In this document: positions 12,352-54,732 of the stretch, piece after piece | How the letters are laid out: each line of letters starts with the position of its first letter | Numbering within the stretch: the stretch's first letter is position 1 | Assembly: GCA_902525575.1 (NCBI GenBank) | Contig: CABZHU010000001.1 | Location: 51,376-115,375 of the forward strand | DNA: 64,000 nucleotides | From: an uncultured Pelagibacteraceae bacterium | GTDB taxonomy: Bacteria > Pseudomonadota > Alphaproteobacteria > Pelagibacterales > AG-422-B15 | Direction: 5' to 3' | Position numbers and translations under genes: made by a program | Notes under the pieces: model-generated | Told to the model about the DNA's origin: nothing | Seen by the model: only the letters and a program-made list of their open reading frames with translations | The model's database searches: none

Positions 12352-12359
12352 AAATTTAA

Positions 12360-14014: not shown

Positions 14015-14017
14015 TTT

Positions 14018-16435: not shown

Positions 16436-17223
16436 TAAACTTTTCTAAATCTTTTAAATACTTCTGCGCCACTCAAGCCTATAAGTATAGCTATTAGAAG
16501 GGAAATCAATCCGTAAATCAAAGGATAGTTTTTTGAAAAGGAATAGATTGCTTCTTCAATACCTACTCTGGTTACCATAAAATTATAAGAATATTCATTC
16601 GAAATTTTATTATCTATAATCAAATACAAATTAACCTTGTATTGGCCGACAGGAACGGTATTGGGTATTTCAATATAAGATCTAAATAAATTTCCATCAA
16701 TTATTTGAATTTCCCCATTGACCTTTCTGTACACGTCTTCACTTTCTTTTGTTCTTATTAGCGCATCATAAAAAGTGTCTTTTTCTTTTTGGTTTTTAAC
16801 ATTGCCCCAGTCAATATTAAGTGCACTCCAGTCTATAAGCTGAGTATCTTTTTTATTTAATAGACCAATATTGTTTTTATTTAAAAATTCATTGGTTATC
16901 TCATTTGTACTTGAAAGATAATAAAATCCAGGAACATCATTAAACCCAACACTTTTTGAATTCAGCCAGAAACCAAAAAAAGATTCCTTTTTTCTTATGA
17001 CTACATCTTCTGACGGACCAACTACTTCAATAAGAATATCACTCTTATCATCTCTTGCTTGCGAGGGATCTGAATAAAATGCTCCAAATACAAGAAGATT
17101 TTTTCCTGAAAAATTAGCATCAATGTATATTTCTTCTTCATCAGATCCAATCACAAGTGCTGAGGCTGACGAGATTAAAAATAATACAAATAATTTAATT
17201 AATAAAAATATTTTAAAATGCAT
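16435..17223 (-). CDS. TIGR02186-like (alpha-proteobacterial) secreted/membrane-anchored protein of unknown function
   Basis: Signal peptide, a roughly 200-aa periplasmic part and a single C-terminal TM. Its position directly after a TauE/SafE gene matches what I recall for this family. The assignment is from memory and is not searched. Confidence 0.45.
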   Translation of the reverse strand: MHFKIFLLIKLFVLFLISSASALVIGSDEEEIYIDANFSGKNLLVFGAFYSDPSQARDDKSDILIEVVGPSEDVVIRKKESFFGFWLNSKSVGFNDVPGFYYLSSTNEITNEFLNKNNIGLLNKKDTQLIDWSALNIDWGNVKNQKEKDTFYDALIRTKESEDVYRKVNGEIQIIDGNLFRSYIEIPNTVPVGQYKVNLYLIIDNKISNEYSYNFMVTRVGIEEAIYSFSKNYPLIYGLISLLIAILIGLSGAEVFKRFRKV

Positions 17224-39179: not shown

Positions 39180-40052
39180 CTATTGTGCTGATATTCCTCT
39201 TATTCTCTCAGATCTTCTTCGTAATAATTCTGTTACGATCAGAATTAATGTTGAAAGAACAATTAAGCAAGTAGCTACAGCCATAATCGTTGGACTAAGC
39301 TGCTCTCTTAATCCTGTCCACATCTGAAGAGGTATAGTTGTTAAGTTCCTATCGCCTCCAGCAACGAATAAGATTACGACTATTTCATCAAATGACGTAA
39401 CGAATGCAAAGAGTGCACCTGAAATAATTCCTGGTGTAATAAGAGGTAATGTAATTTTAAAAAATGTATTGGTTGGTGTACTGCCAAGACTTGATGCAGC
39501 TCTTGTAATACTGTCATCAAAACCACTTAAGGTAGCAGTTACAGTAATGACAACAAATGGGGTTCCTAAAATTATATGAGCGATTACGATGCCAGGAAAC
39601 GTTGCTGCAAGACCTAATTTAGCAAGAGAAAAGAAGATTGCTGAGCCAGAAATGATAAGTGGGATGATCATTGGTGAAATTAAAATACTCATGATCAATT
39701 GTTTATAAGGCATATATCGACTGCTAAGTCCAAGAGCAGCAACAGTCCCTAAAACTGTAGCACCTATCGTTGCGAAAAAGGCATAATAAATGCTGTTTCT
39801 CGCAGCTATTCCCCATGGATTTTTGGTACCATAGACCATATCTTCATACCATCTAAGCGAGAATGCCTCAGGTTGAAGAGCTAGCATCCCATCAGAAAAA
39901 TGAATGTATTGCTCTGCATTAAATGAAAGTGGAATGATGACAAATAGTGGAGCAATTAGAAAAAAGAAAACGGCAATACAAATAATAATGTATGAGTAGT
40001 GCCAGACTCTGTATCTAGTTTCAGTATATTTAGGTAAAGCCACCTTATCCAA
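39180..40052 (-). CDS. ABC transporter permease (PotC-like)
   Basis: 290 aa, 6 TM. EAA-loop region AASSLGSTPTNTFFKITLPL. Confidence 0.8.
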   Translation of the reverse strand: MDKVALPKYTETRYRVWHYSYIIICIAVFFFLIAPLFVIIPLSFNAEQYIHFSDGMLALQPEAFSLRWYEDMVYGTKNPWGIAARNSIYYAFFATIGATVLGTVAALGLSSRYMPYKQLIMSILISPMIIPLIISGSAIFFSLAKLGLAATFPGIVIAHIILGTPFVVITVTATLSGFDDSITRAASSLGSTPTNTFFKITLPLITPGIISGALFAFVTSFDEIVVILFVAGGDRNLTTIPLQMWTGLREQLSPTIMAVATCLIVLSTLILIVTELLRRRSERIRGISAQ

Positions 40053-41292
40053 GCCTCATGTTATCTATGCCGACAATCTTATTGTAAAGCCAATAAACTA
40101 TTAACACAGCTACCAATAAAACAGCTGCCATAGCTGTTGCTAGAGACCAGTCAAGTGATTGCTGCATGTGATACGCAATTCTATTACTGATTAATGTTCC
40201 CTTAGCACCCCCAACTAATGCAGGAGTGATATAATATCCAATAGAAAGAACAAAAACTAAAATTGAGCCTGCACTTATACCAGCATATGTGAGCGGGAAG
40301 TAAATTTTTCTGAATGCAAGAAAAGGAGTAGCCCCCATCGAAGTTGCTGCTCTCATTAAACTTGGTGGTATAGTTTTCATAACGCTATAAAGTGGAAGAA
40401 CCATAAATGGTAAAAGTATTTGTGTCATCGCGATAAATGTACCGGTCATGTTATACATTAATTCAAGCCTTCCTTCATCTGCAACGATACCCAGAGAAAC
40501 AAGAGTATCATTTAAGACCCCCTGTTTTTGGAGCAGGACCATCCAACTAGATGTACGCACAAGCAAAGAGGTCCAAAACGGAAGCAGTACGCAGATCATT
40601 AGTAAATTTGAATATCGAGTTGGTAAAACGGAAAGTAAATGTGATATAGGGTATGCAAGTAGGAAACAGCAGAACGTAACACCAGCTGCAACAAAAATAG
40701 TTCTTAACCAGAGAGTAACATTTATTCGTTTCTTTTCAGGTATTCGTTCAATCGAGCCATCAAATTTTTGTTCGTAGTCAAACGTAGTTAAATATTTTCT
40801 GAAATGATAAGCATCCGTTCCTCTTTTTAGAGCAAGCCAGTATTCAATATCACCCCATTTTTTATGAACATCAATAAACTGATCAAGAAAATTTCCATTT
40901 TGATCGAAATCTTTAAGTTTTCTTGCTGTTTTTTTTATAAGGCTTGTAAAACCTCCTTTTTCATAATTGAGTCTTGTCGCTATTTTGCCGTGATTTTTTT
41001 CTTCTACCAATCCCTTGAGCTCATAAAAGAATGTTGAGGTTACATCTTCCCCGGGCATTTCAGTCCCATCCCAAGTTTGCATAACTTCGTGAGTCTCACT
41101 TAAAAATTCATTCATCTGAACGTTATCGATGCTTCTTCCAAGCATTTGAAATATCGGTATCACGTAGGCAAAAACGATAAAGAAAAGTAATGGCGCAGCC
41201 AACAAGAACGCTGTAGTTCTTCGTCTTCGTTCAACTTTTCTGAGTTTTACAGAGAGGAGCTCTCCGTCCGATGTTCTAATTTCTGCTGACAT
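40045..41292 (-). CDS. ABC transporter permease (PotB-like, with large periplasmic insertion)
   Basis: 415 aa. EAA loop AATSMGATPFLAFRKIYFPL. 8-nt overlap with the downstream permease. Confidence 0.8.
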   Translation of the reverse strand: MSAEIRTSDGELLSVKLRKVERRRRTTAFLLAAPLLFFIVFAYVIPIFQMLGRSIDNVQMNEFLSETHEVMQTWDGTEMPGEDVTSTFFYELKGLVEEKNHGKIATRLNYEKGGFTSLIKKTARKLKDFDQNGNFLDQFIDVHKKWGDIEYWLALKRGTDAYHFRKYLTTFDYEQKFDGSIERIPEKKRINVTLWLRTIFVAAGVTFCCFLLAYPISHLLSVLPTRYSNLLMICVLLPFWTSLLVRTSSWMVLLQKQGVLNDTLVSLGIVADEGRLELMYNMTGTFIAMTQILLPFMVLPLYSVMKTIPPSLMRAATSMGATPFLAFRKIYFPLTYAGISAGSILVFVLSIGYYITPALVGGAKGTLISNRIAYHMQQSLDWSLATAMAAVLLVAVLIVYWLYNKIVGIDNMRLG

Positions 41293-41320
41293 TAAGTATG
41301 AGGATACTTAATTTAAAGGG

Positions 41321-41346
41321 CTTGGGCAACCCATAGGTTGCCCAAG
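41321..41346 (-). terminator. GC-rich perfect 11-bp stem-loop between the SBP gene and the permease genes (intra-operon attenuator or mRNA-stabilising hairpin)
   Basis: Plus strand reads cttgggcaacc-cata-ggttgcccaag, followed by tttt. On the minus (mRNA) strand the same hairpin is followed by ccctttaaatt. It is the only strong hairpin I found in the window. Confidence 0.5.
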
Positions 41347-41356
41347 TTTTAGTCTC

Positions 41357-42478
41357 TTATAAGTTAGCTTTCCAAGCTTCCCATGCGTCGTTGATATCAG
41401 TATTGTTATCAGCGTACCACTCTGGGTTCATAAGAACATAGTTCTTAGTGTTTGCTGGAGCTGTAGGCATGTGAGGCATAATCTCAACTGCACCTGCTTG
41501 AGGTGAATTAAACCACGGCTCATCAGCCATGATTATGTCAAGAGATGAGATTCTGAAAGGTGCGTAAGCGATATGCTTTGCACTTCCAGCCAATCCTTCA
41601 GAGCTTGTGAAGTATTTCAATGCTTCCATTGCTTCAGCTTGGTTAGGACCACCTTTTACAAGTACGAAGTACTCATAATCAAGAATTTGACCATCCCAAA
41701 CCATTTTCATTGGTGAACCTTCGTTCACAATGGCGTTGAAATGACGTCCGTTCCAACCAGTAGCCATAATAGCTTCACCAGAAACTAACTGCTCAGGTGG
41801 TTGTGCACCAGCTGACCAGAAGATGCAACCACCGTTAGGGTCGTTACAAAGTTCTGAAAGCTTATCAAGAGCTCTATCGATTCCATTTTCTTCCATGTAT
41901 TCATACACTTCACCTCCTGGAACACCATCTGCAACTAGTGCAAACTCAAGGTTTGACATGGCAGAGCTATAAAGAGATCTTACTCCTGGATATTTGCTTG
42001 GATTGAAGAAGTCTTCCATTGAGTCAGGATAACTTCCGTCAAAATTTATGTTATCGGTGTTGTAAGCGTAGTTCCATGAGTAAAGAATGTTACCCACAGC
42101 ACAGTCACTTGGCATTGGAGCAAAGAAGTCGTCACTTGCTTTCATACCATTTACACCTGCTGGGAAGTCATTGTCGAAATCAAATTCTACAAATAATCCT
42201 TCGTCACAACCGATAATTGTATCACGCGCATACACATCGATGATGTCCCAAGTAATTGCTCCAGACTCGACCTGAGCTTTAATTTCACTCAAACCTCCGC
42301 TGTAGTCAATCCAGTTTACTTGAACACCACTCTTCTCTTGATATGGGTCCCCATAACCGAGTTTTTGACTTTCAGTATAAGCACCACCCCATGATACTAC
42401 ATTTACTTCCGCAGCTGTAGCCATTGTAGGTGCCACCAATAAAGCAGCCAAAGACATTATTTTTGTTAATCTTAACAT
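41357..42478 (-). CDS. ABC transporter periplasmic substrate-binding protein (PotD/PotF-type family 1)
   Basis: 373 aa with a signal peptide ending ATAAE. VVSWGGAY...W matches the polyamine/opine-type SBP layout. A strong AAGGAG Shine-Dalgarno lies upstream. Confidence 0.8.
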   Translation of the reverse strand: MLRLTKIMSLAALLVAPTMATAAEVNVVSWGGAYTESQKLGYGDPYQEKSGVQVNWIDYSGGLSEIKAQVESGAITWDIIDVYARDTIIGCDEGLFVEFDFDNDFPAGVNGMKASDDFFAPMPSDCAVGNILYSWNYAYNTDNINFDGSYPDSMEDFFNPSKYPGVRSLYSSAMSNLEFALVADGVPGGEVYEYMEENGIDRALDKLSELCNDPNGGCIFWSAGAQPPEQLVSGEAIMATGWNGRHFNAIVNEGSPMKMVWDGQILDYEYFVLVKGGPNQAEAMEALKYFTSSEGLAGSAKHIAYAPFRISSLDIIMADEPWFNSPQAGAVEIMPHMPTAPANTKNYVLMNPEWYADNNTDINDAWEAWKANL

Positions 42479-42600
42479 GATTAATCGTCTCCTTTTTTTA
42501 TATAAAGAAGATATTACATAGGGGCTTTAACAAAAACGCAACAAAAAAAGGTAAATTTTTTCAATATTTTAGGATTGAATCTATATGTAGTATCAAAGGT

Positions 42601-43689
42601 TTAGTAATCTAGTGCTCGACAGTCCTGAGAAGACCAGCCTAAATTTACTTTGTCTCCAAGATTAAGCTTTGAATTACTACTTGCGTTTGGAACTTTAAGA
42701 ATAAAATCATCATTGCCCAGCAAATTCACGCGCACTCTTGTATGATCTCCATGGTAAATGATTTCTTTTATTTCAGCTTCAAATCGATTCTCAATTTGCT
42801 CAGTCGGATTTATGTTAACCCTTTCAGGTCGAAGTGAAATTCTTGATTTTTCACCAGCAGAAGATACTGCAATCGGGTTCGCTATTATTATCTCGCCTGT
42901 ACTTGTCTCAACTTTTGCAGCGCCAGAAGCTAGTTCTTTTACAGTTCCGGTAAACGTATTGTTTTCCCCAATAAAGCTAGCAACAAAAGAATTAACCGGT
43001 GTTTCATATAATTCATTCGGACCTGAAAGCTGTTGAACCTTTCCATCATTAAAGACAGCAATTCTGTTAGACATAGTTAACGCTTCACCTTGATCGTGAG
43101 TTACATATACGACTGTAACTCCCAGTGTTTCATGAATATGTTTTAACTCGTACTGCATACTCTCACGTAAGTTTTTGTCTAACGCACCTAAAGGTTCATC
43201 CATCAAAACTAATTTAGGATCAAATACTAATGCTCTTGCAACAGCAACACGTTGCTGTTGACCACCAGATAGTTGTGCAGGCATTCTATTTTCAAAGCCC
43301 GTTAGTGAAACCATTTTTAAGGTTTTATTTATACGTTCTTCAATTTCTGCCTTATCAATTTTTCTAACTTTCAATGGAAATGCTAAATTTTCAAATACTG
43401 ATAGATGTGGAAAAAGAGCGTAGTTCTGAAAAACCATACCAATACCCCTTTTGTGAGGAGGTATATTATTGATTGGATTGCCATCAAAATAAATCTCGCC
43501 ATTGGTGGGCGTTTCAAAGCCTGCAAGCATCATCAATGTAGTTGTTTTACCGGAACCTGAAGGCCCTAATAAAGTTAAAAACTCGCCTTCAGCAATATCA
43601 AGGTCTAGACCTTTTACGACCAGTTCTTTACCGTCATAACTTTTGTCAACTTGTTCAAATTTTACAAAATCTGACTTTTTTTCACCCAT
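42601..43689 (-). CDS. ABC transporter ATP-binding protein (PotA-like)
   Basis: Walker A GPSGSGKTT, signature LSGGQQQR, Walker B LVLMDEP, and a C-terminal TOBE-like domain. Confidence 0.9.
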   Translation of the reverse strand: MGEKKSDFVKFEQVDKSYDGKELVVKGLDLDIAEGEFLTLLGPSGSGKTTTLMMLAGFETPTNGEIYFDGNPINNIPPHKRGIGMVFQNYALFPHLSVFENLAFPLKVRKIDKAEIEERINKTLKMVSLTGFENRMPAQLSGGQQQRVAVARALVFDPKLVLMDEPLGALDKNLRESMQYELKHIHETLGVTVVYVTHDQGEALTMSNRIAVFNDGKVQQLSGPNELYETPVNSFVASFIGENNTFTGTVKELASGAAKVETSTGEIIIANPIAVSSAGEKSRISLRPERVNINPTEQIENRFEAEIKEIIYHGDHTRVRVNLLGNDDFILKVPNASSNSKLNLGDKVNLGWSSQDCRALDY

Positions 43690-43807
43690 GATTTCAGACT
43701 AAGGTAAAAATAGTTGGGAATCTAGGGTTATTTAAACTAAATTAATCACAGATAAAAATTATAATAAAGTTCGTTAATTAGCCAAAACAAGATATTACAA
43801 AGTACAA

Positions 43808-45241
43808 ATGAAAAAATATCAACATTACATAAATGGAGAGTGGATTGACTCCACAGGTAATGAAGTTATTGCCGTTGTCAATCCAGCGACAGAAGAAGTA
43901 ATAGGAGAAATTTCGGCTGCTAATAAAAATGATATTGATCTGGCTGTTGCAGCGGCAAAAGTAGCTTATGAGTCACGAGTGCTAGTCGACATGAATCCTA
44001 TGGAGAGAGCAAAGTTGATGCGTAGCGTTGCTGATGAATTAAGAAAGATTAGCAAAGATGGTGGCGCATTATTGTGTGAAGAGAATGGAAAATTATTAGC
44101 TGCGTCAGTGTATGAATTTTTGGATGCGGCAAACTATTTTGACTATTACAGTGGATTGACTGATAAAATTGAAGGTCAAACCATACCAGTAAATAATCAA
44201 GTGATGGATTACACTTTGTATGAACCTTATGGTGTTTCAGGTCATATTGTTCCTTGGAATTTTCCAATTTCAATGTTGGCACGTTCTCTAGCCTGTTCAT
44301 TTGCCGCCGGAAATTCAACAGTTATAAAACCAGCTGAGCTAACTCCTCTAGCAACTACATCATATTTCGCACAGGCTGTTCATAATGCGGAAGTACCAAA
44401 GGGACTAATTAATATAGTAACTGGATATGGTGTTGAGGCAGGAGCTGCATTGACATCAAATAATGATGTCGCTCAAATCACATTCACGGGATCTGTGAAA
44501 ACTGGAAAGACAATACTTCACGCAGCTGCTGAAAGAGCTGTACCAGCTGTTGTAGAGCTAGGGGGCAAATCAGCTGCTGTTGTGTTACCTGATGCTGATA
44601 TTGATAAAGTTGTTAATGCAACAAAAGTTGGAATATTTAGTCAAGCTGGACAAATATGTTCTGCAATGTCACGCATGATTGTACATAAGTCTATTAAAGA
44701 TGAGGTATTAGACAAGTTATCGGAATTAGCCAAATCAATAAAAGTTGGACCAGGCAATGAAGAAGGCGTTGACCTAACACCTGTAATATCAGAGGAACAA
44801 CTTCAAAAAGTTGAGAACTATGCAAGATCAGGTTTACAAGCTGGAGCCACAGCAATATCAGGAGGTAGTCGTGTTGATCGAAAAGGATATTTCTTTGAGC
44901 CAACAATTTATGCAGATGTAAAGCCAGATATGACCATCGCTCAAGAAGAAATTTTCGGCCCATTCCTATCTGTGCTTGATTATGAAGATCATGAAGAAGC
45001 AATTCATATTGCAAATGATACAGACTACGGTTTAGCGGCAGGTGTATTTACAAAAGATGTTGATATGGCAACTAAGACAGCAGCTAAGCTTAATGGTGGA
45101 CAAGTCTACGTGAATAGTTGGTTTACCGGCAGTATTGCAACTCCTTTTGGAGGGTATAAACAATCAGGCTATAGTCGTGAGAAAGGTCAGCAAGCTATAA
45201 AGAGCTATTTGCAATTAAAGAATGTTGGAATTCAACTTTAA
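43808..45241 (+). CDS. NAD(P)-dependent aldehyde dehydrogenase
   Basis: 477 aa. Motifs VPWNFP, FTGSVKTGK, ELGGKS, catalytic Cys context GQICSA, and EEIFGP. Confidence 0.9.
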   Translation: MKKYQHYINGEWIDSTGNEVIAVVNPATEEVIGEISAANKNDIDLAVAAAKVAYESRVLVDMNPMERAKLMRSVADELRKISKDGGALLCEENGKLLAASVYEFLDAANYFDYYSGLTDKIEGQTIPVNNQVMDYTLYEPYGVSGHIVPWNFPISMLARSLACSFAAGNSTVIKPAELTPLATTSYFAQAVHNAEVPKGLINIVTGYGVEAGAALTSNNDVAQITFTGSVKTGKTILHAAAERAVPAVVELGGKSAAVVLPDADIDKVVNATKVGIFSQAGQICSAMSRMIVHKSIKDEVLDKLSELAKSIKVGPGNEEGVDLTPVISEEQLQKVENYARSGLQAGATAISGGSRVDRKGYFFEPTIYADVKPDMTIAQEEIFGPFLSVLDYEDHEEAIHIANDTDYGLAAGVFTKDVDMATKTAAKLNGGQVYVNSWFTGSIATPFGGYKQSGYSREKGQQAIKSYLQLKNVGIQL

Positions 45242-45856
45242 TTAATCATTATCTTCAAGTCCGGCGCCAGCGGCCGTAGTTTTCAATTTCTCATTTTCTT
45301 CAACAAATGTATCTGTTGATAATGCATATAGCTCATCCCAGACCTCTTGGGTGAATGAGTCATCATTTTCAAATGTGGACACTTTAATATTTTTAGCTTT
45401 TTTTATTACCAAGGAATTAACGTCGCTATCACTAAACATATACTTATCTAAATTAAATCTAAATACATGCTCATCTATATTTATACTTACTCTTTTGCCA
45501 ATTAGAAACGACAGTCTGCTTATAAAGGGAATCATAAGAAGAGGGTAGCTTACATTAAAAAAATTGATTTCTTTTAAAAGCTCTACTTTTTTAAAATCAT
45601 CAATAAGGCATACTCCAGTTAGGATTGGACAAAGGCATTCATTATCAATTTTATTTTGCAATTCTATGGCATGTGGACCAATTGGTGTTTTCTTTTGTAT
45701 ATCTCTTAAATATGATTTTAAATTTTCTATACCTGCGATTCCTATCAATTCCAATATATCAATATTTTTTCCAACTTCTTCAGCCACACCCCATGAGTAC
45801 CCCGCAGCTTTAGTAGCTCTTTTTGATACTGTAATGATTTCGCTCGAGGACCTCAT
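45242..45856 (-). CDS. Conserved hypothetical protein (DUF3726-like, tentative)
   Basis: 204 aa. The N-terminal block KRATKAAGYSWGVAEEVGKNI is what I associate with DUF3726. It is the last gene of a tightly packed three-gene operon. Confidence 0.4.
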   Translation of the reverse strand: MRSSSEIITVSKRATKAAGYSWGVAEEVGKNIDILELIGIAGIENLKSYLRDIQKKTPIGPHAIELQNKIDNECLCPILTGVCLIDDFKKVELLKEINFFNVSYPLLMIPFISRLSFLIGKRVSINIDEHVFRFNLDKYMFSDSDVNSLVIKKAKNIKVSTFENDDSFTQEVWDELYALSTDTFVEENEKLKTTAAGAGLEDND

Positions 45857-45860
45857 AAAG

Positions 45861-47519
45861 TTATGAATAAATCCATCTGTCGTTACTTTGACTTATCTCA
45901 TTCATTAAAGGAGCTCCTTGATACATGCATATTCTCAACCATTTATCGGAACGAGGGTCAAATTTTTGCGCCCCAAAAAAAGACAACTTTAATCTCAGCA
46001 TATCAATGGGCATTAAATTTGAACCAATTGAATTATCTTGAATTTCAGAGTACGGCAGCTTCTCAGCTATAAAGCATCTTCTTACCACATGTCTTAAATC
46101 GCTATTATTCCTCAAAAACTCTGACAAAATTTGGTCCTCAGGAACTTCCAAAAGACGGAAATACAGTGCATTTATATCACGAGCTATGGCAAGAGGCTGT
46201 TCCAACTCAGATCCTTCGTCATCAAATCTGTTTGCTAACCTTGGCTCCTCTTTATTTTTGGAAATAAACCAGAATTTTTCGTTTGGCTCATTTTTTGAGA
46301 AATCAATCTTAATAATACCTCTATAACCTTTATGAATTATATTCTTTAACTCGCTTACTTTTTTATAAGTTGGAATGTTGAAATATAAATCTTCGTCAGA
46401 ACTCATTTTTGATATTAAAGGATAAACAATAGAATTATAAGGTTCCATCATTAGTGAAACGATAAATTCAATACCTTCAAAACTTAGATGTTTTTCAATC
46501 CATTTATAAAGATGATTCCAAAGATTCTCTCTATCTACAGATAAGGTTGGAAGATATTCACTTTCAAATTTTTCAATATCGTTTCTTAAATCTTTTATTT
46601 TCTTTATTTGATACTCACTTTTTGTTTCCCAGGTACTGATCATATTTTTAGAAAGTTTTAGACATTCCTTAAATATACTTAACTCACTTTCCTTTACTTT
46701 ATTTATTTCTCTAATTTGTCTTAACGCATCTTCTTTAGCAAAAATCCACTGATGTAACAGAGATGGATGATTAATAATAAAAGGAGCCATGCCAAGTCCT
46801 GTAGAATTACCTATTCCAAGTTTACGTGCTATTGATTGATCTAGCGTGACAGCCAATTTGGGATTCTTCTTTTTAGCAATGTGATTAACCTGGTCAAAAG
46901 TAAACTGACGCACTAAATAAACCAACATCATTTCTAGTCGGAAGGGACCATTAATTTCTTTGCGATCTTTAATTCTATATCGATCAGCTAATCCAAATTT
47001 ACCAGATCCATAAACCGCTGTGGTTCGATAGAGGTAGCCAACTTTTTTTATCAAAGATAAATCAGGTTGAACTCCATTCGAAAGTCTTTCAACAACATGA
47101 TTAAAAATTCTTACAGACTTATTTGCTCGCGATAATGTTAATTCTTTATAACTGCATCTACCTACTTCCTGCTTAGGAACATTCAATTTTAATCTTTGAA
47201 TATCTTTTTCAGTTGGGATTCCATCGTGAAGAACAAATGCTGCATCCCATTTCGTAGCAATTACTCTGTCGGACCTTTCAGAAGAATCAAGTTCATTAGC
47301 AAAACAGATTAATGAATAGGTGCGACTATCTTTATTAACTGAATAAACTGCAGTTCCAAAACCATGTTCATCAAGATCAAACAAATCAGATTTAAATGTC
47401 CAACTTTTAAATTCTCTTACAAAACTTCTTAGAAAAGATAGCTTTGTTTGATGAAAGGAACCTAATCGCTTTAGCGTCATCACTTCATGAGGGTCGCGGT
47501 GCTTAATTTGCTTATGCAT
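45861..47519 (-). CDS. Hypothetical protein, 552 aa, no family recognised
   Basis: A long uninterrupted ORF in an AT-rich genome. It has a 1-nt overlap (47519) with the upstream dipeptidase gene and a 4-nt gap to the downstream gene. Soluble, with no recognisable catalytic motif. Confidence 0.6.
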   Translation of the reverse strand: MHKQIKHRDPHEVMTLKRLGSFHQTKLSFLRSFVREFKSWTFKSDLFDLDEHGFGTAVYSVNKDSRTYSLICFANELDSSERSDRVIATKWDAAFVLHDGIPTEKDIQRLKLNVPKQEVGRCSYKELTLSRANKSVRIFNHVVERLSNGVQPDLSLIKKVGYLYRTTAVYGSGKFGLADRYRIKDRKEINGPFRLEMMLVYLVRQFTFDQVNHIAKKKNPKLAVTLDQSIARKLGIGNSTGLGMAPFIINHPSLLHQWIFAKEDALRQIREINKVKESELSIFKECLKLSKNMISTWETKSEYQIKKIKDLRNDIEKFESEYLPTLSVDRENLWNHLYKWIEKHLSFEGIEFIVSLMMEPYNSIVYPLISKMSSDEDLYFNIPTYKKVSELKNIIHKGYRGIIKIDFSKNEPNEKFWFISKNKEEPRLANRFDDEGSELEQPLAIARDINALYFRLLEVPEDQILSEFLRNNSDLRHVVRRCFIAEKLPYSEIQDNSIGSNLMPIDMLRLKLSFFGAQKFDPRSDKWLRICMYQGAPLMNEISQSNDRWIYS

Positions 47520-48490
47520 TAATGAATATTCTCTTTGTAAAAATTAAACCAGTTGTCACCTAATATTGCATCTACCTCTTTGTCATCAAAGCCAATTTCT
47601 TTTAAGCCTGTTGCAAGGTTGTTAAACCCTAATGTATTTTCAAACCAATCTGGCTGCCGAGGAAATGCTGCATCACTTTTAGACCCTTCTCCATAATCCT
47701 TAGTTTTTGTCCATGTCCCATTTCTCATCCACTCAACAACAGAGTCAGGTTGATGAAGGCATAAATCTGATCCAATACCTACATGATCAATGCCCATGAG
47801 GTCTACAGTCCTTGCTGTCATTTCACAAAAACTTTTAAGAGTACAATTAGTTCCTCCAAGAAGATGGTGAGGATAAAGCGAAAGACCAATAATCCCTTTT
47901 GACTGACTAAGTGCTTTTAATAGCTCGTCTGACTTATTTCTTTTAGCTGGATGCCAAAAGGAAGGATTGGCATGAGTGATGGCAATCGGTTTTTCTGAAA
48001 TATTGATCGCATCCAAGGTTGATTGTTCTGCTGAGTGTGACATGTCTATAACTATTCCAACTCTATTCATTTCTTTAATGACTTCTCTGCCCATTCGCGT
48101 GACACCACTGTCATTTTCTTCATAGCAACCTGTTGCAAGCAAAGATTGGTTATTATACGTGAGCTGCATAAAGACTGCTCCTAAATCATGCACAGCTTCA
48201 ACGAGTTTTATATCGTCTTCAATAGGTGAACAGTTTTGGAAACCAAAAAAGACAGCAGTTTTTTTTTCTGCTTTTGCTTTTTCTATATCTTTGTAGGTTC
48301 TTCCATGAATCAATAAATTATTAAATTCTTCAAAGTAAGAATCCCATTGCTCTACATTATTTTTTACTTCATCAAAATCTTCATGATAAGCAATGGTTAC
48401 ATGAATTGCATTTAAACCCGCTTCATTATTGATTTTAAAAATTTCTTCTGACCAATTACAATATTGTAAATTATCGATTCTATAGGTCAT
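47519..48490 (-). CDS. Renal-dipeptidase (M19) family protein, divergent metal site
   Basis: 323 aa. Family blocks VIDMSHSAEQS, IAITHANPS and HVGIGSDL are present. The N-terminal IDGHND-type HxD appears as IDNLQY, and the EGG-type Glu position appears as GFQN (by-eye alignment). Confidence 0.7.
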   Translation of the reverse strand: MTYRIDNLQYCNWSEEIFKINNEAGLNAIHVTIAYHEDFDEVKNNVEQWDSYFEEFNNLLIHGRTYKDIEKAKAEKKTAVFFGFQNCSPIEDDIKLVEAVHDLGAVFMQLTYNNQSLLATGCYEENDSGVTRMGREVIKEMNRVGIVIDMSHSAEQSTLDAINISEKPIAITHANPSFWHPAKRNKSDELLKALSQSKGIIGLSLYPHHLLGGTNCTLKSFCEMTARTVDLMGIDHVGIGSDLCLHQPDSVVEWMRNGTWTKTKDYGEGSKSDAAFPRQPDWFENTLGFNNLATGLKEIGFDDKEVDAILGDNWFNFYKENIH

Positions 48491-48530
48491 ATAACTCTAA
48501 TTCTTTGATCATAGTTTCTACTCATATACT

Positions 48531-48635
48531 ATGAAAGCGCTGAGAGGGAATCAATGCCAAGAAAATCAATTTTTTGCGCCATTTAAGGGTTTTTTATTGA
48601 AACTGCGACAATTTTGGCCCCAATTCTCCATCTGA
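48531..48635 (+). other. Candidate 34-codon small ORF carrying the shared GGGTTTTTT-TTGAAACTGC motif
   Basis: Hand translation: MKALRGNQCQENQFFAPFKGFLLKLRQFWPQFSI. The motif at 48587..48609 is read in the same frame (G-F/V-L/F-L-K-L-R/Q) as in the 36647..36766 ORF. No homology support. Confidence 0.2.
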
Positions 48636-48698
48636 ACTTCTTTCTTTCTTCATTTAAGATATTATATTTACAAAGATACTAATTTTTAAAACTATTTT

Positions 48699-49298
48699 AT
48701 GTATACACCCATTAACCAATATATTGAGAGATTAGAAAATATCTCTTTTGATGTTGATGAATTGAACAAAGCAGTATCTGATCTTGTAAAGATCAGACCG
48801 TTTGAGAATGAAAATATAAAGCCAGGAATGCTAAAGTCCAATGCAATTTGTCTTAACTATGATGAAAAAGAACTTGATGAGTGGTTTGGCGGTAATATCA
48901 GAGGCAAATATTGGACAAAGCCTGACTCTTCTTTTGAGGAAATGGAGCGCGAGCCGTACATAGACGAATCCAGATACACACTATTCAACCCAAAGCTTAA
49001 TAATACTTACTTTAAGTATGTTTATGATAAAATTAATGAGTTCTTCGAAGTGGGCAGATGTAGAGTTATCAAGATGCCTCCAAGAACGACACTAAGTTGG
49101 CACCGTGATCCTGAAAAACGTATACATGTTGCAATTAAGACAAATTATGGCGCTAGGATGTTTATTGAGCATACTGGTCACCACATACCGGCTGATGGAA
49201 ATATTTATCTAACAGATAATACGAAGTACCACACAGCAATTAATGGTGGCGAAGAGGATCGAATTCATTTAGTTGCAACGGTATTGGGTACAAAATAG
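48699..49298 (+). CDS. Cupin-fold protein, aspartyl/asparaginyl beta-hydroxylase-like 2OG-Fe(II) oxygenase (tentative)
   Basis: 199 aa. WHRDPEKRIHVAIKTN....KYHTAINGGEEDRIHLV gives an HxD...H facial-triad-like pattern. Confidence 0.45.
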   Translation: MYTPINQYIERLENISFDVDELNKAVSDLVKIRPFENENIKPGMLKSNAICLNYDEKELDEWFGGNIRGKYWTKPDSSFEEMEREPYIDESRYTLFNPKLNNTYFKYVYDKINEFFEVGRCRVIKMPPRTTLSWHRDPEKRIHVAIKTNYGARMFIEHTGHHIPADGNIYLTDNTKYHTAINGGEEDRIHLVATVLGTK

Positions 49299-49300
49299 TT

Positions 49301-50620
49301 TTAGCAATCAATAATATTTTTTCTTTCCCAATCTTTTTTGTTTTCATCATTAACTTTATTGTGTTCTGCAATCTCTCTTTTTTTAAGTTTTACGTATTGA
49401 GAGACAACTTTTGAACCTATAGATTTTTTTACAATTTCACTGGCTTTAAATTTATCTAGTGACTCTGTAAGAGACTGAGGCAGCTTTTTGATTCTTTTTA
49501 ATTTGTGACCTTGTGAATACATATTCACATCAATTCTCTTGCCTGGACTTCTCTTATTTTTTATTCCTTCTAATCCCATTGCTATTAATCCAGCTTGTAG
49601 AAGATACGGATTAACTGCGCCATCAGCGGGTCTGAATTCTATTCGCCCTGCATCTGGTATTCTGATCATGTGTGTTCGATTGTTACCTGAGTACGTTACA
49701 GCAGTAGGTGAATACGTTGATCCTGAATTTGTTATTCTCGCATTCAAACGATCATAACTATTTAATGAAGGGTTAAACCATGCAGAAAAAGAGTCCACGC
49801 ATTTTATAATGCCACCAATAAAGTGGTAGCCCATTTTGGATAAGCCAAGATCATTATCCTGATCAAGAAAATAGTTTTTCTTTTTTTTTAAATCCCATAG
49901 AGATACGTGAGCATGGCAACCATTACCCGTCAGATCATCAAATGGCTTGGGCATAAAAGTTGCTCGTAATCCGTGTTTCTCAGCAATAGATTTCACCATA
50001 AACTTAAAAAAGACATGTCTGTCTGCAGTCGTAAGTGAATCAGTGTAATCCCAATTCATTTCATATTGACCATTAGCATCCTCATGATCGTTTTGATAGG
50101 GCTTCCACCCAAGCTTGATCATGGAGTCACAAATTTCCTTTAAAATATCATAGCGCCTCATCAATGCTGCAACATCATAACAAGGCTTTGGTGCATCATC
50201 CCTAGAGTCAGCAACTTCAGTCCCTTCTTCATTGAGTATAAAAAATTCACATTCCACACCAGTCATCATTTTAAAATTAAGGTCTGTCATGTGGTTAATT
50301 TGTTTTTTGAGTATGACACGTGGGCACTGATCCATCGGCCCATTGTTAATCACCAGATCACTGGCCAACCAACCAACATCAGGTTGCCATGGCAATTGTA
50401 TGAGACTTTCAGGGTCTGGGACAGCAAACATATCTGGGGCTGCAAAATCAAGGTCTAGGTAAGTAGCAAAACCGCCAAACCCAGCACCGGTTTTTTGCAT
50501 TTCAGAAATTGCGCGGGCTGGCACTAATTTCGCGCGTTGGATGCCGAACAAATCAACAAAGCTAATTAAGAAGTATTTGATTTTCTTTCGCTGAGCGATC
50601 TTAGCTAAATTGCTTTTCAT
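49301..50620 (-). CDS. Glutamine synthetase-family gamma-glutamyl-amine ligase (PuuA/GmaS-like)
   Basis: 439 aa. Motifs GVECEFF, ATFMPKPF..GNGCHAHVSLW and NSYDRL are the GS catalytic blocks. Substrate cannot be told from sequence by eye. Confidence 0.8.
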   Translation of the reverse strand: MKSNLAKIAQRKKIKYFLISFVDLFGIQRAKLVPARAISEMQKTGAGFGGFATYLDLDFAAPDMFAVPDPESLIQLPWQPDVGWLASDLVINNGPMDQCPRVILKKQINHMTDLNFKMMTGVECEFFILNEEGTEVADSRDDAPKPCYDVAALMRRYDILKEICDSMIKLGWKPYQNDHEDANGQYEMNWDYTDSLTTADRHVFFKFMVKSIAEKHGLRATFMPKPFDDLTGNGCHAHVSLWDLKKKKNYFLDQDNDLGLSKMGYHFIGGIIKCVDSFSAWFNPSLNSYDRLNARITNSGSTYSPTAVTYSGNNRTHMIRIPDAGRIEFRPADGAVNPYLLQAGLIAMGLEGIKNKRSPGKRIDVNMYSQGHKLKRIKKLPQSLTESLDKFKASEIVKKSIGSKVVSQYVKLKKREIAEHNKVNDENKKDWERKNIIDC

Positions 50621-50690
50621 GATTAGAATTATGACTTTTCAAATATTAAATTCAATAATGAATTATAATGTATATTTATGTTACGAAAAA

Positions 50691-50701
50691 CCCAATTTGG
50701 G
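50691..50701. promoter_or_regulatory. Inverted repeat CCCAATTTGGG, 15 nt upstream of the tandem-wHTH gene
   Basis: Seen directly. Pattern CCCAA-NN-TGGG, shared with 54624..54634. Confidence 0.25.
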
Positions 50702-50715
50702 CATACTATTAAATC

Positions 50716-51780
50716 ATGGATCCAAACCTAGATGCAAAAAAAGAAAAAGTTATCAATCTCATTAATAATCTAGATGATGGTAATTTTGCATTGTTGTTGC
50801 TAATTCACATCTCCAGGTATCAAAATTTATTTTTACATACAGAGCCTGATTGGGAAAACAGCCCAACCAATTGGTTAACAAAAAACAGACGACTGCAAGA
50901 TGAGTCTATCGGAGTTCTATCGTTCATCATTCTTTTTTCTCTTACCAATGCGCATGTGAATGAAGACCTTTTTCCTGAATTTAGAAAGCAAATCAAGGCA
51001 ATGCATCTTGATGACTTTTTGGATAATAATTTTTTTACTGGCCCATTTAATAAGTTTATTGAAAAAAAAATATCTCTAAAAGTTCTTGAAGCATTTTTTT
51101 CTATACCTCGTGAAAATATAAGACGATACCTAAAGTCTTTAATAGAGGCTGGATTTGTTAATAAAGATAAAAAGTATGGTTACCTTGTAAACATGGAGGC
51201 GTATGTTCAATATATATTTACTGATTCTCTTGGTAAAATTATGAAGTCGCTCATGAGAACATTCGATGACATTCTCTTAAATCTTGAAGACAAGTATCAA
51301 TGTAAATTAAATGTAAAACCCATCTCAACGATAAATTTAAAGACAGTAAAACCAGAAATCTGGAATCGAATTAGATTGCCCATGTATCTCTTTTGGGTAA
51401 GAGTTTTAACGCTAGAAGGTAATGATCCAACCTTAAGTCCTAATGATCGCGTTGTCTTGTCTGCATCGATCTATTTTAGGAAACACACTGGAATTTTAAA
51501 TTTCAATGATGTTGCAGAGCTATATGAAAATGGTTATCTCTTGCCGACAAATATTTCATCAATTTCTGAAGCTTCTAAAATGCCACGAGAAACTGTGAGG
51601 AGGTGTAGTAATAAATTAATAAAGATTGGACATTTAGAAAAAAGAGGACGTCAATTGTTTAGGATTAATTACGCTCGCAAAGATGGAGAGATAGCAACTT
51701 TTATCAAGAACAAAGCAGTAACAACACGTGATATGATGAATTTTTACTTTAGTATTTATGATGATCTAGCTCAGTCTTAA
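50716..51780 (+). CDS. Predicted DNA-binding protein with two winged-helix-like repeats
   Basis: 354 aa with an internal duplication. IPRENIRRYLKSLIEAGFVNKDKKYGYLV (about 51103-51190) and MPRETVRRCSNKLIKIGHLEKRGRQLFRI (about 51577-51665) both look like MarR/Crp-type recognition helix plus wing. Confidence 0.45.
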   Translation: MDPNLDAKKEKVINLINNLDDGNFALLLLIHISRYQNLFLHTEPDWENSPTNWLTKNRRLQDESIGVLSFIILFSLTNAHVNEDLFPEFRKQIKAMHLDDFLDNNFFTGPFNKFIEKKISLKVLEAFFSIPRENIRRYLKSLIEAGFVNKDKKYGYLVNMEAYVQYIFTDSLGKIMKSLMRTFDDILLNLEDKYQCKLNVKPISTINLKTVKPEIWNRIRLPMYLFWVRVLTLEGNDPTLSPNDRVVLSASIYFRKHTGILNFNDVAELYENGYLLPTNISSISEASKMPRETVRRCSNKLIKIGHLEKRGRQLFRINYARKDGEIATFIKNKAVTTRDMMNFYFSIYDDLAQS

Positions 51781-54548
51781 ATTGAGCACATTAATATAAT
51801 TTCTTCATTACATACTAGTTCAGCTTCAACAATGGAGCTATTTTGGGAACTTAATTGTGTATCGAGAGCTTCCAGCATAGACTTTGCTTCACCCGTTGGT
51901 ACTGGACCTACAATGACGGAATAGTCATTTTTGTCAAATTTATCGACATTGATGTCATATTTAAGGAATCTGCTGTCAAATCCCATTACATCATAAATGT
52001 AATTCATAAAACTGAATGCAGAATTACCACGCGTATAAGATCCGATTTTTATATAAACAAATTCAGCATCGCTGGTATCAATTATTAATTCAGTCTCTTC
52101 AATATCACTTGCTTGGGCACTAAAAGCATTTGATGCTACTTCCATTGGTTCTTCAATGAGTTGAGTTAAATCTTCTAACGCTTGAGATGCCTCTTCAGCT
52201 AATTTATTCTCTAATTCAGCAGTATTGTTCAATTCTGTAAGTAAATCTCTTGCAGTAGTTGCTTCTTCTACGAGGCTATTCTCATCAACTGTATTTAAGA
52301 TTTTCTTTTTTGGTAATATACCAACAGGATCTAAAGTTTCTTCACTATTGTCAACTGACACTTCGTCATCAAGTATTATTGGTTCACTCACTTGATTTTC
52401 TATTGCATTAATATCTGTAATGGCTTCTTCATTTTCAACTGAAGCATCATCTAGTATAGTTTGAGCTTTTTGAAGAGTGTTATCAACAGAGTCTAATAAA
52501 TCATTAAGACTATCAGCATCATTAATGATCATTTCATTCGAAATAGCAAATTCGTCTAAATCTATTTTTTGCTCATCATTAATTTCTAAATTTTCAGGAA
52601 TTTCTTCATTTGACTCTACGACTTCTCCATTAGATTCAACGTCATTTTCTACCGCGAGGTTGATAGCTTCTTTTCTATCTAAACCCAACTGGATAAGTTT
52701 TTGCCTTGCACCTTCGGCTTCTTGAGCGAGAAATTCACCCTCATCCATAAACTGAAGCGTGAATGTATCTTCAACAGAGACCAGCGCATTCGCAACTGAG
52801 ACTTTTAACTTTATCCCCGATACGTCATTGGGAGGATTGCCCACAAATGATAAATCAGACGTTAAAAAAGCAAGCCATCTGGGCAGAGGAGTCCCATCTT
52901 CTTGCATTGCTTGATAGCGTATTTTACCTGGCCCACTAATATTAAAAGTATTGTCAGAAATTTGAAATTTATTACTCGTTTGCTGCGTATTTATTGGATC
53001 ATTTATAATCAGAAGCATGGGACCTTGTTCGCTGATGGGAACATCTACTACTGCTTGATAAACTTCTCCCCACTCAGATAGATTGGTTTCAATATTTTTG
53101 CTCACATCGTCGATAGATAAATTTTGATGATTATCAGGAAGAATATCTTTTCCTATTGATGCGTAAATTTGACCGATACTGTGCTGCATTTCGGAAAATG
53201 CTAGATCTCGTCTGAGTTCTGCAACGAGTAAACTCGCTTCTTCCCGAATGACTTCAAGTTCGCCAAATCGAGAGACTTTTTGGGCATTTTGAACTTGTTT
53301 ACTGATCCTTTGTGCAACATCTAAGTATCTTTGTGCTGTATCATATTCTTCAATCGCGAGGGCATAATTCATATTTGAAAGATGAACTTGAGACAGTACT
53401 GTCATAGCTATCGCAAGGTGACGTTCTGCAATTAAATCTTTACTGGCTTTAGATGATTTTTTTACAGCCCCTAATGAAAACACGTTAAAAAGGTTAGCTC
53501 CAATGGATGCGCCGTATTCTGTTGAGTCTTGGTTCAACAAATATTGATTGCTTGAATAACCGTAAGTCGCATTAAATTTTATACTTGGAATCAGGCCTAA
53601 AATGGCGGCTCTTGTATCCTTGCCAGTAATCCTTTTTTGATATCGGCTTTCCATGAGTTCAGGTCTTGAGACAAGTGCAATTTCTTCCATCTTTTCAATG
53701 TTCATATTTATATTGGTCAGGTAACTGTCATCACTTGATAAGCTAAACTTTTGACCAGGCAGTAATCCCATGAGTATTGCAAGTTCATTTTTGGAATTGA
53801 TCAATGCACGTTGCTGCGTTTGTAGTGTTCTCTGTACATCAAGTAATTCTTTTTGATAAAGCAAAGAGTCCATAGGTGCAGATATAAGAAGTTCTTCAAT
53901 ATATTTTGAGTCAGCGAGAGCTTCTTCAACTCTCTCAAGAAGAGGATTCAATTTTTTTAGAAGATTTTCTGATGCTTGTGCTTTCCAATAAGCACGAATA
54001 ATATCACGAGCAATATTCTGAGTTGCTTTTCTCTCAAGCTCTTTAGCAATCAGATATCGATCTGCTTGCTGACCTGCTCTGATATAGGATAAACCAAAAT
54101 CGAGAGCATTCCATGTGAATTCAATATTTTTAGTTCTCAGTCCTCTATCACGAGAAACAGTATAACTTTGTGTTCCATCAAGATCAGGTGCAGGCTCACT
54201 ATCATTAGGAACTGTAATACTTGTTGAGGGTTGTAACTCAGTAAACTCTGAATAACCTGCATTGAGTGCAATATCAGGCAGCATATCAAATCGTTGAAGA
54301 TCATTTTGTCTTTGAGCTAATGCAGACTCCATAACACTTATTCTTAAGTCACGGTTGTTTTTAATACCAATAGCAATTGCCGTGTGCAGGTCTATGTTTT
54401 CAAGAGGTGCGTCAACTGCAAGCAATGATAGATCTTTTTGAACACTTACATTTAATTTTTCTGCATCGATAACATTCGGTGTTCGAGCGCAGGCGCTAAG
54501 TGCAATACATAGGCAAAATATAATAATTTTTGTACTAATCTTTTTCAT
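51777..54548 (-). CDS. TolC-like outer-membrane efflux lipoprotein with a 440-aa C-terminal extension (cadherin-like module, acidic linker, SPOR-like domain)
   Basis: Lipobox LSAC. Two OEP-type repeats occupy about nt 54470-53150. Next comes ...EDGTPLPRWLAF...VSGIKLKVSV..FTLQF (about 52972-52750), then a D/E/N-rich linker (about 52750-52075), then FVYIKIGSYTRGNSA....YSVIVGPVPTGEAKSMLEALD (about 52072-51860), which fits the SPOR pattern. Confidence 0.8.
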   Translation of the reverse strand: MKKISTKIIIFCLCIALSACARTPNVIDAEKLNVSVQKDLSLLAVDAPLENIDLHTAIAIGIKNNRDLRISVMESALAQRQNDLQRFDMLPDIALNAGYSEFTELQPSTSITVPNDSEPAPDLDGTQSYTVSRDRGLRTKNIEFTWNALDFGLSYIRAGQQADRYLIAKELERKATQNIARDIIRAYWKAQASENLLKKLNPLLERVEEALADSKYIEELLISAPMDSLLYQKELLDVQRTLQTQQRALINSKNELAILMGLLPGQKFSLSSDDSYLTNINMNIEKMEEIALVSRPELMESRYQKRITGKDTRAAILGLIPSIKFNATYGYSSNQYLLNQDSTEYGASIGANLFNVFSLGAVKKSSKASKDLIAERHLAIAMTVLSQVHLSNMNYALAIEEYDTAQRYLDVAQRISKQVQNAQKVSRFGELEVIREEASLLVAELRRDLAFSEMQHSIGQIYASIGKDILPDNHQNLSIDDVSKNIETNLSEWGEVYQAVVDVPISEQGPMLLIINDPINTQQTSNKFQISDNTFNISGPGKIRYQAMQEDGTPLPRWLAFLTSDLSFVGNPPNDVSGIKLKVSVANALVSVEDTFTLQFMDEGEFLAQEAEGARQKLIQLGLDRKEAINLAVENDVESNGEVVESNEEIPENLEINDEQKIDLDEFAISNEMIINDADSLNDLLDSVDNTLQKAQTILDDASVENEEAITDINAIENQVSEPIILDDEVSVDNSEETLDPVGILPKKKILNTVDENSLVEEATTARDLLTELNNTAELENKLAEEASQALEDLTQLIEEPMEVASNAFSAQASDIEETELIIDTSDAEFVYIKIGSYTRGNSAFSFMNYIYDVMGFDSRFLKYDINVDKFDKNDYSVIVGPVPTGEAKSMLEALDTQLSSQNSSIVEAELVCNEEIILMCSI

Positions 54549-54623
54549 TAATTAAGGATAAGCTTACTAGTATTTGTTAGTAGGGAATATAGACAAATGG
54601 CAGAAAACTTACAAAAAAATTTG

Positions 54624-54634
54624 CCCAAAATGGG
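54624..54634. promoter_or_regulatory. Inverted repeat CCCAAAATGGG in the divergent OMF / giant-protein promoter region
   Basis: Seen directly. It lies 76 nt from the OMF start and 99 nt from the giant-gene start. Confidence 0.25.
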
Positions 54635-54732
54635 TTATTTAGGCTTGTGAGAGTACCCTTACAATTTTAGTAATGTATAAAGAAAAGGCTAAATATCAAT
54701 AATTATGTTGGTTTGAAAAATTATATATAAAA

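Follow-up and report, generated by a model that had tools for sequence, protein, structure and literature searches.

The three-gene unit and its probable published counterpart

What do three closely packed genes on the minus strand of a SAR11 genome encode? The question is raised by positions 45242–48490 of a 64-kb stretch of DNA (G+C about 34%) from an uncultured Pelagibacteraceae bacterium, which was analysed as a whole and is called the window here. The first gene in the direction of transcription (47519–48490) encodes an M19-family amidohydrolase of 323 amino acids (aa; Pfam PF01244), the second (45861–47519; 1,659 nucleotides, nt) a 552-aa orphan protein with no match in Pfam, NCBIfam or the PDB, and the third (45242–45856; 615 nt) a 204-aa protein of the DUF3726 family (PF12525). 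A preliminary description, made from the sequence alone, had taken this trio for one co-transcribed operon of unknown function. The open reading frames and their junctions were read directly and agree with the first part of that statement: the stop and start codons of the M19 gene and the 552-aa gene overlap as TAATG (a spacing of −1 nt), and the stop codon TAA of the 552-aa gene is followed by cttt and then by the ATG of the DUF3726 gene (a spacer of 4 nt). The view of the trio as a co-transcribed unit is supported; a terminator scan, of little information in itself, found no terminator-like site within it. The second part did not hold, since the gene set matches homC-homB-homA, which was published in March 2026 (PMC13236597).

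The homABCDER operon is responsible for the catabolism of homarine (N-methylpicolinate) (Ferrer-Gonzalez et al., Nat Microbiol, March 2026; PMC13236597; all statements on the published operon are from this paper). Its gene order in Cobetia is homE-homA-homB-homT-homC-homD-homR, in which homT encodes a betaine-type transporter, and SPO3188–SPO3192 of Ruegeria pomeroyi correspond to homA, homB, homC, homD and homR. The homA gene has a length of ~700 nt and homB of ~1,700 nt, the two are neighbours in 97.7% of 11,755 genomes, and a heterodimer of their products is predicted. The homC product is a predicted peptidase, and homD encodes an aldehyde dehydrogenase (ALDH). The operon is induced by homarine, and mutants of homB, homC, homD and homR fail to grow on it. 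The need for these genes during growth on homarine and the conversion of homarine to N-methylglutamate were demonstrated in R. pomeroyi and Cobetia only. Reported carriers belong to SAR11, SAR116, Rhodobacterales and Vibrionales; homE was absent in 120 of 120 Pelagibacter genomes, and in-situ homB transcripts that track the homarine concentration were attributed partly to Pelagibacter.

Gene content, gene order, gene sizes, the predicted complex and the taxonomic range all match this operon, and we therefore consider it likely that the trio represents homC-homB-homA in its SAR11 form, in which the DUF3726 protein corresponds to HomA, the orphan protein to HomB and the M19-like protein to HomC. 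The two orphan families are adjacent, as homA and homB are (615 nt against ~700 nt, and 1,659 nt against ~1,700 nt), and the M19-like gene, at the place of homC, overlaps the homB-like gene by 1 nt. The annotation of SPO3188 reads 'hypothetical protein'. The same families in mirror-image order were found in Vibrio campbellii, in two operons of Phaeobacter inhibens, in Roseateles, in Mesorhizobium, in a Burkholderiales metagenome-assembled genome (MAG) and at locus L084, and the 552-aa orphan family was recovered from the same groups as the reported operon carriers. In the published survey, the hidden Markov models (HMMs) for homA and homB were specific and those for homC and homD gave many off-target matches, which is expected of an orphan pair on the one hand and of M19 and ALDH families on the other. 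Furthermore, the sox-like genes, folD and purU that neighbour the operons of Roseateles and Phaeobacter fit the N-methylglutamate dehydrogenase link described for the homarine route. The window shares with the hom operon the ~700-nt orphan, the ~1,700-nt orphan and the peptidase, and other taxa share the ALDH and the LysR-type regulator as well. On the other hand, the window has no homR, and the ALDH beside the trio does not appear to be an orthologue of HomD. On this assignment the pathway-level function is already known, and the feature is a known operon core in a new genome.

Properties of the predicted proteins

To characterize the HomC candidate, the M19-like protein was compared with Pfam, NCBIfam and the PDB. 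It matched PF01244 with an E-value of 2e-71, in an alignment that begins only at profile position 44, and no NCBIfam model named it. The best PDB relative was 2i5g ('amidohydrolase'; E 3e-51), and the identity to the operon M19 proteins of Phaeobacter, Roseateles and Vibrio was 55–60%. M19 enzymes are classically dehydropeptidases, as represented by DPEP1. The preliminary description had held that this protein keeps the His/His/Asp blocks of the family and lacks the bridging Glu and the N-terminal HxD, and that it is not a true dipeptidase. The motifs on which this was based (DMSHS, ITHAN, GIGSDL, IDNLQY and GFQN) are all present. For ligand mapping, a profile of seven subfamily members, with identities down to 41%, was aligned to Sco3058 (PDB 3id7). 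In this alignment His152 falls on His191, His173 on His212 (both beta-metal ligands) and Asp242 on the catalytic Asp320, so that the His/His/Asp blocks are indeed kept. Gln85 falls on the bridging Glu123, and Tyr112 on His150, the substrate-binding His of the LTHN motif. These five residues are invariant in all seven members. The loss of the bridging Glu was thus borne out, while that of the HxD is only probable: IDNLQY stands for IDGHND by pattern only, in a segment that HMMER did not align, and 2i5g reads IDGLII at this place. The protein shares with DPEP1 and Sco3058 the TIM-barrel amidohydrolase fold, the beta-site His/His pair and the catalytic Asp, but differs from them in the bridging Glu, which is replaced, in the LTHN His, which is Tyr, and probably also in the alpha-site ligands. 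The invariant replacement of the bridging Glu and the substrate His agrees with the view that it is not a true dipeptidase. Because the bridging Glu is replaced and the HxD seems to be absent, what is established for M19 and the amidohydrolase superfamily suggests that the protein is, in all likelihood, not a binuclear dipeptidase but an amidohydrolase with one metal ion or none.

The HomB candidate has no recognizable relative among characterized proteins. Single-sequence searches of the 552-aa protein against Pfam, NCBIfam and PDB sequences gave no match, and a profile of 55 family members found nothing in PDB sequences or Pfam. The family has more than 8000 relatives in a collection clustered at 90% identity, all of them unnamed or called 'hypothetical', and 1372 clusters were counted at 50% identity. 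Arg, Gly, Trp, Glu and His are frequent at the conserved positions; in the list of conserved residues no Cys is invariant or nearly so, and there is no Rossmann motif. The AlphaFold2 model was of high quality, with a predicted local distance difference test (pLDDT) score of 94.6 and a predicted template-modelling (pTM) score of 0.93, and a Foldseek search of the PDB with this model gave no match (best E 0.28). The earlier statement that the protein has no motif that can be placed is consistent with these empty sequence, profile and fold searches, in which no well-known enzyme family came up. As modelled, HomB appears to be a new fold without a solved or curated relative.

The DUF3726 protein, the HomA candidate, matched PF12525 with an E-value of 2e-16 over residues 2–55 only. 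Its C-terminal tail reads ...TFVEExExxKxxAAGAGLxDND, and a conserved end of the form (T/S)(F/Y)V..(S/T)E.S(R/K)..GAGAG..D(N/S)D-COOH was recognized in the window (45242–45300), at loci L084, L086, L090 and L094, and in the homologues P0122 and P0123. The GAGAG tail spans SAR11, Roseobacters and Burkholderiales, and is altered or absent in the distant copies of Sinorhizobium meliloti, L081 and Vibrio.

Many homologues of the 552-aa protein, 760–940 aa long, are natural fusions of this family with a C-terminal DUF3726 domain. At least four representative sequences (P0122, P0123, P0124 and P0145) are fusions of 760–810 aa, and fusions also occur at loci L082, L083 and L089. The longer proteins of 850–940 aa (P0222, P0235, P0251 and others) carry a C-terminal extension of ~350 aa in which DUF3726 is barely or not detectable. 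Since natural fusions are classic evidence of partnership, HomB and HomA are predicted to work together, presumably in a complex. The model of the fusion P0122, from the Burkholderiales MAG, had a pLDDT of 90.5 and a pTM of 0.92, with disorder confined to the linker. The only meaningful PDB folds that Foldseek returned for it were enzymes of the Ldh_2 family (type-2 malate/lactate dehydrogenase), namely YiaK (1s20), AllD, 1vbi and 1z2i, with probabilities up to 1.0 over ~175 columns, root-mean-square deviations of 4–5 Å and E-values from 0.05 to 1; for YiaK, the probability was 1.0 and the template-modelling score normalized to the target 0.41. These matches were assigned to the DUF3726 part because the 552-aa protein alone gave none.

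A direct hhalign comparison of DUF3726 with Ldh_2 was weak (first 44 residues, E 0.0025, probability 12%). In the PDB, only the folds of Ldh_2 enzymes (YiaK, AllD and DpkA) resemble that of the DUF3726 domain, the helix pattern at the N-terminus can be aligned, and full-length Ldh_2 genes come after the DUF3726 gene in Mesorhizobium and Roseateles. DUF3726 differs from them in its length (~200 aa against ~340 aa), in the lack of a Pfam Ldh_2 match, in the SHG histidine, which is not conserved and at whose position the sequence reads G-I-A-G, and in the distinctive GAGAG..DND tail. From the modelled structure, DUF3726 looks like a truncated Ldh_2-like fold. Literature searches on DUF3726, on SAR11 with dipeptidase, and on BCCT with dipeptidase and RidA returned nothing useful.

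Conservation of the trio and competing functions

To examine whether the three genes stay together elsewhere, 80 related SAR11 loci (L001–L080), all from Pelagibacteraceae, were compared. The order M19, 552-aa orphan, DUF3726 was kept in all 80 of them, with differing flanks, and it also recurs in other proteobacteria; the trio is therefore syntenic in other genomes. Among the SAR11 flanks, at least two contexts can be distinguished that are unrelated to each other. The first, to which the window belongs, comprises a pot-like ATP-binding cassette (ABC) transporter, an ALDH, an AspH-like oxygenase and a type III glutamine-synthetase (GS)-like ligase. The transporter lies beside the trio in 24 loci (L001–L024), 22 of which have the type III GS as well, and most of which carry the AspH-like gene and the ALDH. 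In the second context, represented by the other 56 loci (L025–L080), purEK lie on one side, and a DmdA-like GCV_T protein, a protein resembling methylenetetrahydrofolate reductase (MTHFR), OpuA and a Rieske oxygenase on the other. At L070 of Candidatus Pelagibacter communis (10430–16674), for example, the trio stands beside an unannotated 181-aa gene and a 452-aa DmdA-like GCV_T gene that scores below the DmdA cutoff; further genes of this context encode a short MTHFR-like protein, OpuAB/OpuAC and a Rieske oxygenase with weak similarity to GbcA. It is a second uncharacterised cluster for methylated compounds.

Outside SAR11, the module has a fourth conserved gene, which encodes an ALDH. Phaeobacter inhibens DSM 17395 has one operon with the arrangement RidA / LysR / ALDH-M19-orphan-DUF3726, beside dmd genes, and another with soxBDAG / LysR / ALDH-M19-BCCT-orphan-DUF3726. 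The corresponding arrangements are LysR / RidA-ALDH-M19-BCCT-orphan-DUF3726 in Vibrio campbellii, soxBDA / GlxA-type regulator / LysR / ALDH-M19-orphan-DUF3726-Ldh_2-OpuA-purU-folD in Roseateles, ALDH-M19-fusion-Ldh_2 in Mesorhizobium, ALDH-M19-BCCT-fusion-RidA in the Burkholderiales MAG and ALDH-M19-orphan-DUF3726 at L084. The ALDHs of these operons are closest to alpha-ketoglutarate-semialdehyde dehydrogenase (KGSADH), with scores below the cutoff. The two Phaeobacter operons, L086 and L094, are paralogues on plasmid pPGA1_262, one with BCCT near sox-like genes and the other beside dmdABCD; their ALDH and M19 proteins are 82–85% identical, the orphans 64% and the DUF3726 proteins 47%. Distant branches, at 23–33% identity, retain the orphan and DUF3726 with other partners. 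S. meliloti pSymB (L087) has the order IclR-orphan-DUF3726-like-M19-ABC(pot-like)-class III aminotransferase, L081 and L093 have the orphan and DUF3726 pair only, both near the phnGHIJ genes of carbon-phosphorus lyase, and Bosea differs again.

Several points weigh against the assignment to the homarine operon. The mapping is based on the content, order and sizes of the genes, on the taxa and on annotations, and not on direct alignment to SPO3188–3190 or the Cobetia genes. No LysR gene that could be homR lies in the neighbourhood of the trio, the neighbouring ALDH (32–35% identity) does not seem to be an orthologue of HomD, and no mgd or sox genes occur within the 64-kb window. The SAR11 orphan is about equally distant (45–46%) from the two Phaeobacter paralogues, which are themselves 64% identical, and the existence of two such paralogues means that substrate specificity within the family may vary. 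For SAR11, the published work shows gene presence and in-situ transcripts, and not homarine use by a culture (PMC13236597). The FAD-binding motifs that it states for HomA were not reproduced, as only DUF3726 and the Ldh_2-like fold were found; one speculation is that the GAGAG tail was taken for a dinucleotide-binding motif. Finally, no oxygen-activating cofactor site was recognizable in HomB, so that the mechanism of ring opening is a guess.

With these points in view, it is conceivable, though rather unlikely, that the same machinery in SAR11 acts on another N-methylated heteroaromatic compound or betaine, such as trigonelline or another pyridinium or cyclic betaine. The two paralogous operons on one Phaeobacter plasmid would be accommodated in this way, as would the different partners in the divergent branches (S. 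meliloti, Bosea, L081 and L093) and the two SAR11 contexts, one with the pot-type ABC transporter and the other with OpuA, the Rieske oxygenase and the DmdA-like protein. However, Pelagibacter is among the reported hom carriers, homB transcripts track homarine (PMC13236597), and between the M19 protein of SAR11 and the copies in the Roseobacter operons the identity is 60%. A separate difficulty comes from the M19 and DUF3726 pairs beside dimethylglycine genes, which the preliminary description had mentioned and which are indeed found in PA5396-PA5397-dgcA-dgcB, PP_0308-9 and V. natriegens pepD_hp_dgcAB_fixAB. These pairs (PA5396/PA5397 and PP_0308/PP_0309, considered together with PDB 2i5g) belong to the same M19 subfamily, have identical ligand substitutions and a DUF3726 neighbour, and lie in a quaternary-amine context, but no 552-aa HomB gene is present there and the partners are DgcA, DgcB and electron-transfer flavoprotein. 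For PP_0308-9, fitness was significantly impaired on carnitine, choline and betaine, an effect that the authors called unexplained. The homarine assignment does not explain why an M19 and DUF3726 pair heads a dimethylglycine demethylase operon. One could suppose that the pair is a general helper of amine-demethylating dehydrogenases, for example by hydrolysis of an iminium, carbinolamine or oxazolidinone intermediate, and that the 552-aa protein is the dehydrogenase partner in SAR11. The dgc loci that carry the pair without the 552-aa gene, the fitness defects, and the ligand substitutions of 2i5g, the closest solved M19 relative, all speak for such a role. We regard it as improbable, however, as the genetics tie the four-gene set to homarine (PMC13236597), the 552-aa protein has no recognizable redox-cofactor motif or listed conserved Cys, and the P. 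putida phenotypes may be polar effects on dgcAB.

The flanks of the window could also suggest a polyamine or gamma-glutamyl-amine pathway, in which the trio would cooperate with the pot transporter, the ALDH and the type III GS-like ligase, and the M19 protein would replace the gamma-glutamyl hydrolase. The pot-like transporter of L001–L024 and the GS in 22 of these 24 loci are in line with this view, but L025–L080 keep the trio order with entirely different neighbours, and outside SAR11 the partners are LysR, the KGSADH-like ALDH and BCCT or OpuA instead of GS or pot, which makes it very improbable. It can hardly be believed that the M19 protein is an ordinary dipeptidase whose gene is accompanied by two unrelated passengers: the Pfam M19 match is strong, but the bridging Glu and the substrate His, and probably also the HxD, have been exchanged throughout the subfamily, the trio genes are translationally coupled, and the synteny is kept across Alpha-, Beta- and Gammaproteobacteria. 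The homarine assignment is retained here as the likely one. The earlier proposal of a step in small-amine or gamma-glutamyl metabolism was correct in its first half, in the sense of the catabolism of N-methylated, betaine-type compounds; the gamma-glutamyl half found no specific support. Several further candidates were dropped because nothing specific spoke for them. The neighbouring genes for RidA, Ldh_2 and the KGSADH-like ALDH had prompted a route through hydroxyproline-betaine or pipecolate; the others were a choline-type dehydrogenase of a novel kind, the hydrolysis of creatinine or N-methylhydantoin, that of ectoine, and a gamma-glutamyl-polyamine route.

A possible reaction scheme and the surroundings of the trio

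How the three proteins might act on homarine can be considered from the reported metabolites. Labelled homarine gave N-methylglutamate, glutamate, N-methylglutamine and features with the formulas C7H9NO5, C6H9NO4 and C6H9NO3, and the N-methyl group was retained through ring opening (PMC13236597). In outline, homarine (N-methylpyridinium-2-carboxylate) is imported, its ring is opened with the N-methyl group attached, and one carbon is removed to give N-methylglutamate, which N-methylglutamate dehydrogenase converts to glutamate and a one-carbon unit. In the scheme that we propose for the intermediate steps, HomB and HomA would cleave the C5–C6 bond of homarine (C7H7NO2) with O2 and two reducing equivalents to yield N-formyl-N-methyl-dehydroglutamate semialdehyde (C7H9NO4), which the ALDH would oxidise to C7H9NO5. 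HomC, as a mononuclear 'dehydropeptidase', would then hydrolyse the N-formyl amide of C7H9NO5 to formate and C6H9NO4, and this enamine or imine would be reduced to N-methylglutamate (C6H11NO4). The formula arithmetic of the scheme reproduces two of the reported formulas, C7H9NO5 and C6H9NO4; the third, C6H9NO3, could be N-methyl-5-oxoproline. The scheme also has a task for every class of enzyme. HomC is a plausible deformylase because M19 'dehydropeptidases' classically act on N-acyl dehydro-amino acids, and the probable lack of its alpha-metal site may reflect a substrate without a free amino group. An enamine or imine would have to be hydrolysed or reduced, and RidA and Ldh_2 as neighbours are in keeping with this.

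As an alternative, HomC might open the pyridinium ring hydrolytically to give N-methyl-2-aminomuconate semialdehyde. 2-Aminomuconate semialdehyde cyclises spontaneously to picolinate, and the alternative would be the reverse of this reaction. It would explain the translational coupling of the ALDH and M19 genes in most operons.

A related pathway for trigonelline, with TgnAB, TgnC and TgnD, was reportedly found in Acinetobacter baylyi by Perchat and co-workers (PNAS, 2018). The two routes would have a common logic, in which an N-methylpyridinium carboxylate is opened with the methyl group intact, followed by dehydrogenase and hydrolase steps, but the end products differ, namely N-methylglutamate for hom and succinate semialdehyde plus methylamine for Tgn. 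HomAB was hypothesised by the authors of the homarine study to act like the trigonelline oxygenase TgnAB (PMC13236597). In our analysis, no sequence or fold relation to TgnAB was found: HomA looks like an Ldh_2 fragment and not a flavin reductase, Pfam and NCBIfam searches detected no flavin reductase or oxygenase domain in HomA or HomB, and HomB had no PDB fold match. We tentatively suggest, as a possibility that may well prove wrong, that HomB, as a new fold, and a degenerate Ldh_2-like HomA open the ring in a manner unlike TgnAB, that HomC is a mononuclear M19 deformylase, and that a pair of the HomC/HomA type was independently recruited by DgcAB.

Phytoplankton contain homarine as an abundant metabolite, and no bacterium of the ocean is more abundant than SAR11; the genes of the trio therefore mark a real flux of carbon and nitrogen, a link that was published in 2026. 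To this the present analysis adds a HomB fold that is not in the PDB, a HomA that looks like a truncated Ldh_2 protein and not an evident flavoprotein, natural HomB-HomA fusions, a 'peptidase' HomC that probably lacks one metal site, and a reaction scheme that matches reported formulas. That SAR11 loci lack an orthologous ALDH and the regulator matters when homarine use is inferred from gene presence.

The surroundings of the trio in the window differ from those of the published operon. Upstream of the homC-like gene, a divergent intergenic region of 208 bp (48491–48698) is presumed from its position to be the promoter region, which would serve the trio and the divergent AspH-like gene; a promoter scan of this region gave only matches no better than chance. 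At the other end, the ALDH gene (43808–45241, plus strand; PF00171) is convergent to the trio. Its stop codon abuts that of the homA-like gene with zero intergenic bases (TTAATTAA; 45239–45244) and no terminator-like structure was found there, so that the two transcripts must either overlap or each stop within the gene on the other strand. This ALDH is absent from L008 and from all 56 loci of the second context. It is closest to betaine-aldehyde dehydrogenase, with a score below the cutoff, and is 32–35% identical to the operon ALDHs, which are 59–82% identical to each other. From these identities, it does not seem to be the HomD orthologue and could be a functional stand-in.

The segments 39180–45241 and 48699–51780 form a gene block that accompanies the trio in one SAR11 subgroup only (L001–L024). 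The AspH-like 2-oxoglutarate oxygenase of this block has 199 aa, is 87–99% conserved and is divergent from the trio, and a 354-aa protein with weak helix-turn-helix matches is encoded at 50716–51780. The type III GS-like ligase matched TIGR03105 with 598 bits, above the cutoff; speculatively, this ligase could produce gamma-glutamylmethylamide, which is isomeric with the 'N-methylglutamine' found in the homarine study. Beyond this block, at 51777–61824, the window encodes a 923-aa TolC-like outer-membrane protein, with OEP and He_PIG domains and a long acidic C-terminal extension, and beside it a 2363-aa protein of VNDxP/TxxDxD-type repeats, in a region where the local G+C reaches 0.43. These two proteins probably constitute a type I secreted adhesin system.

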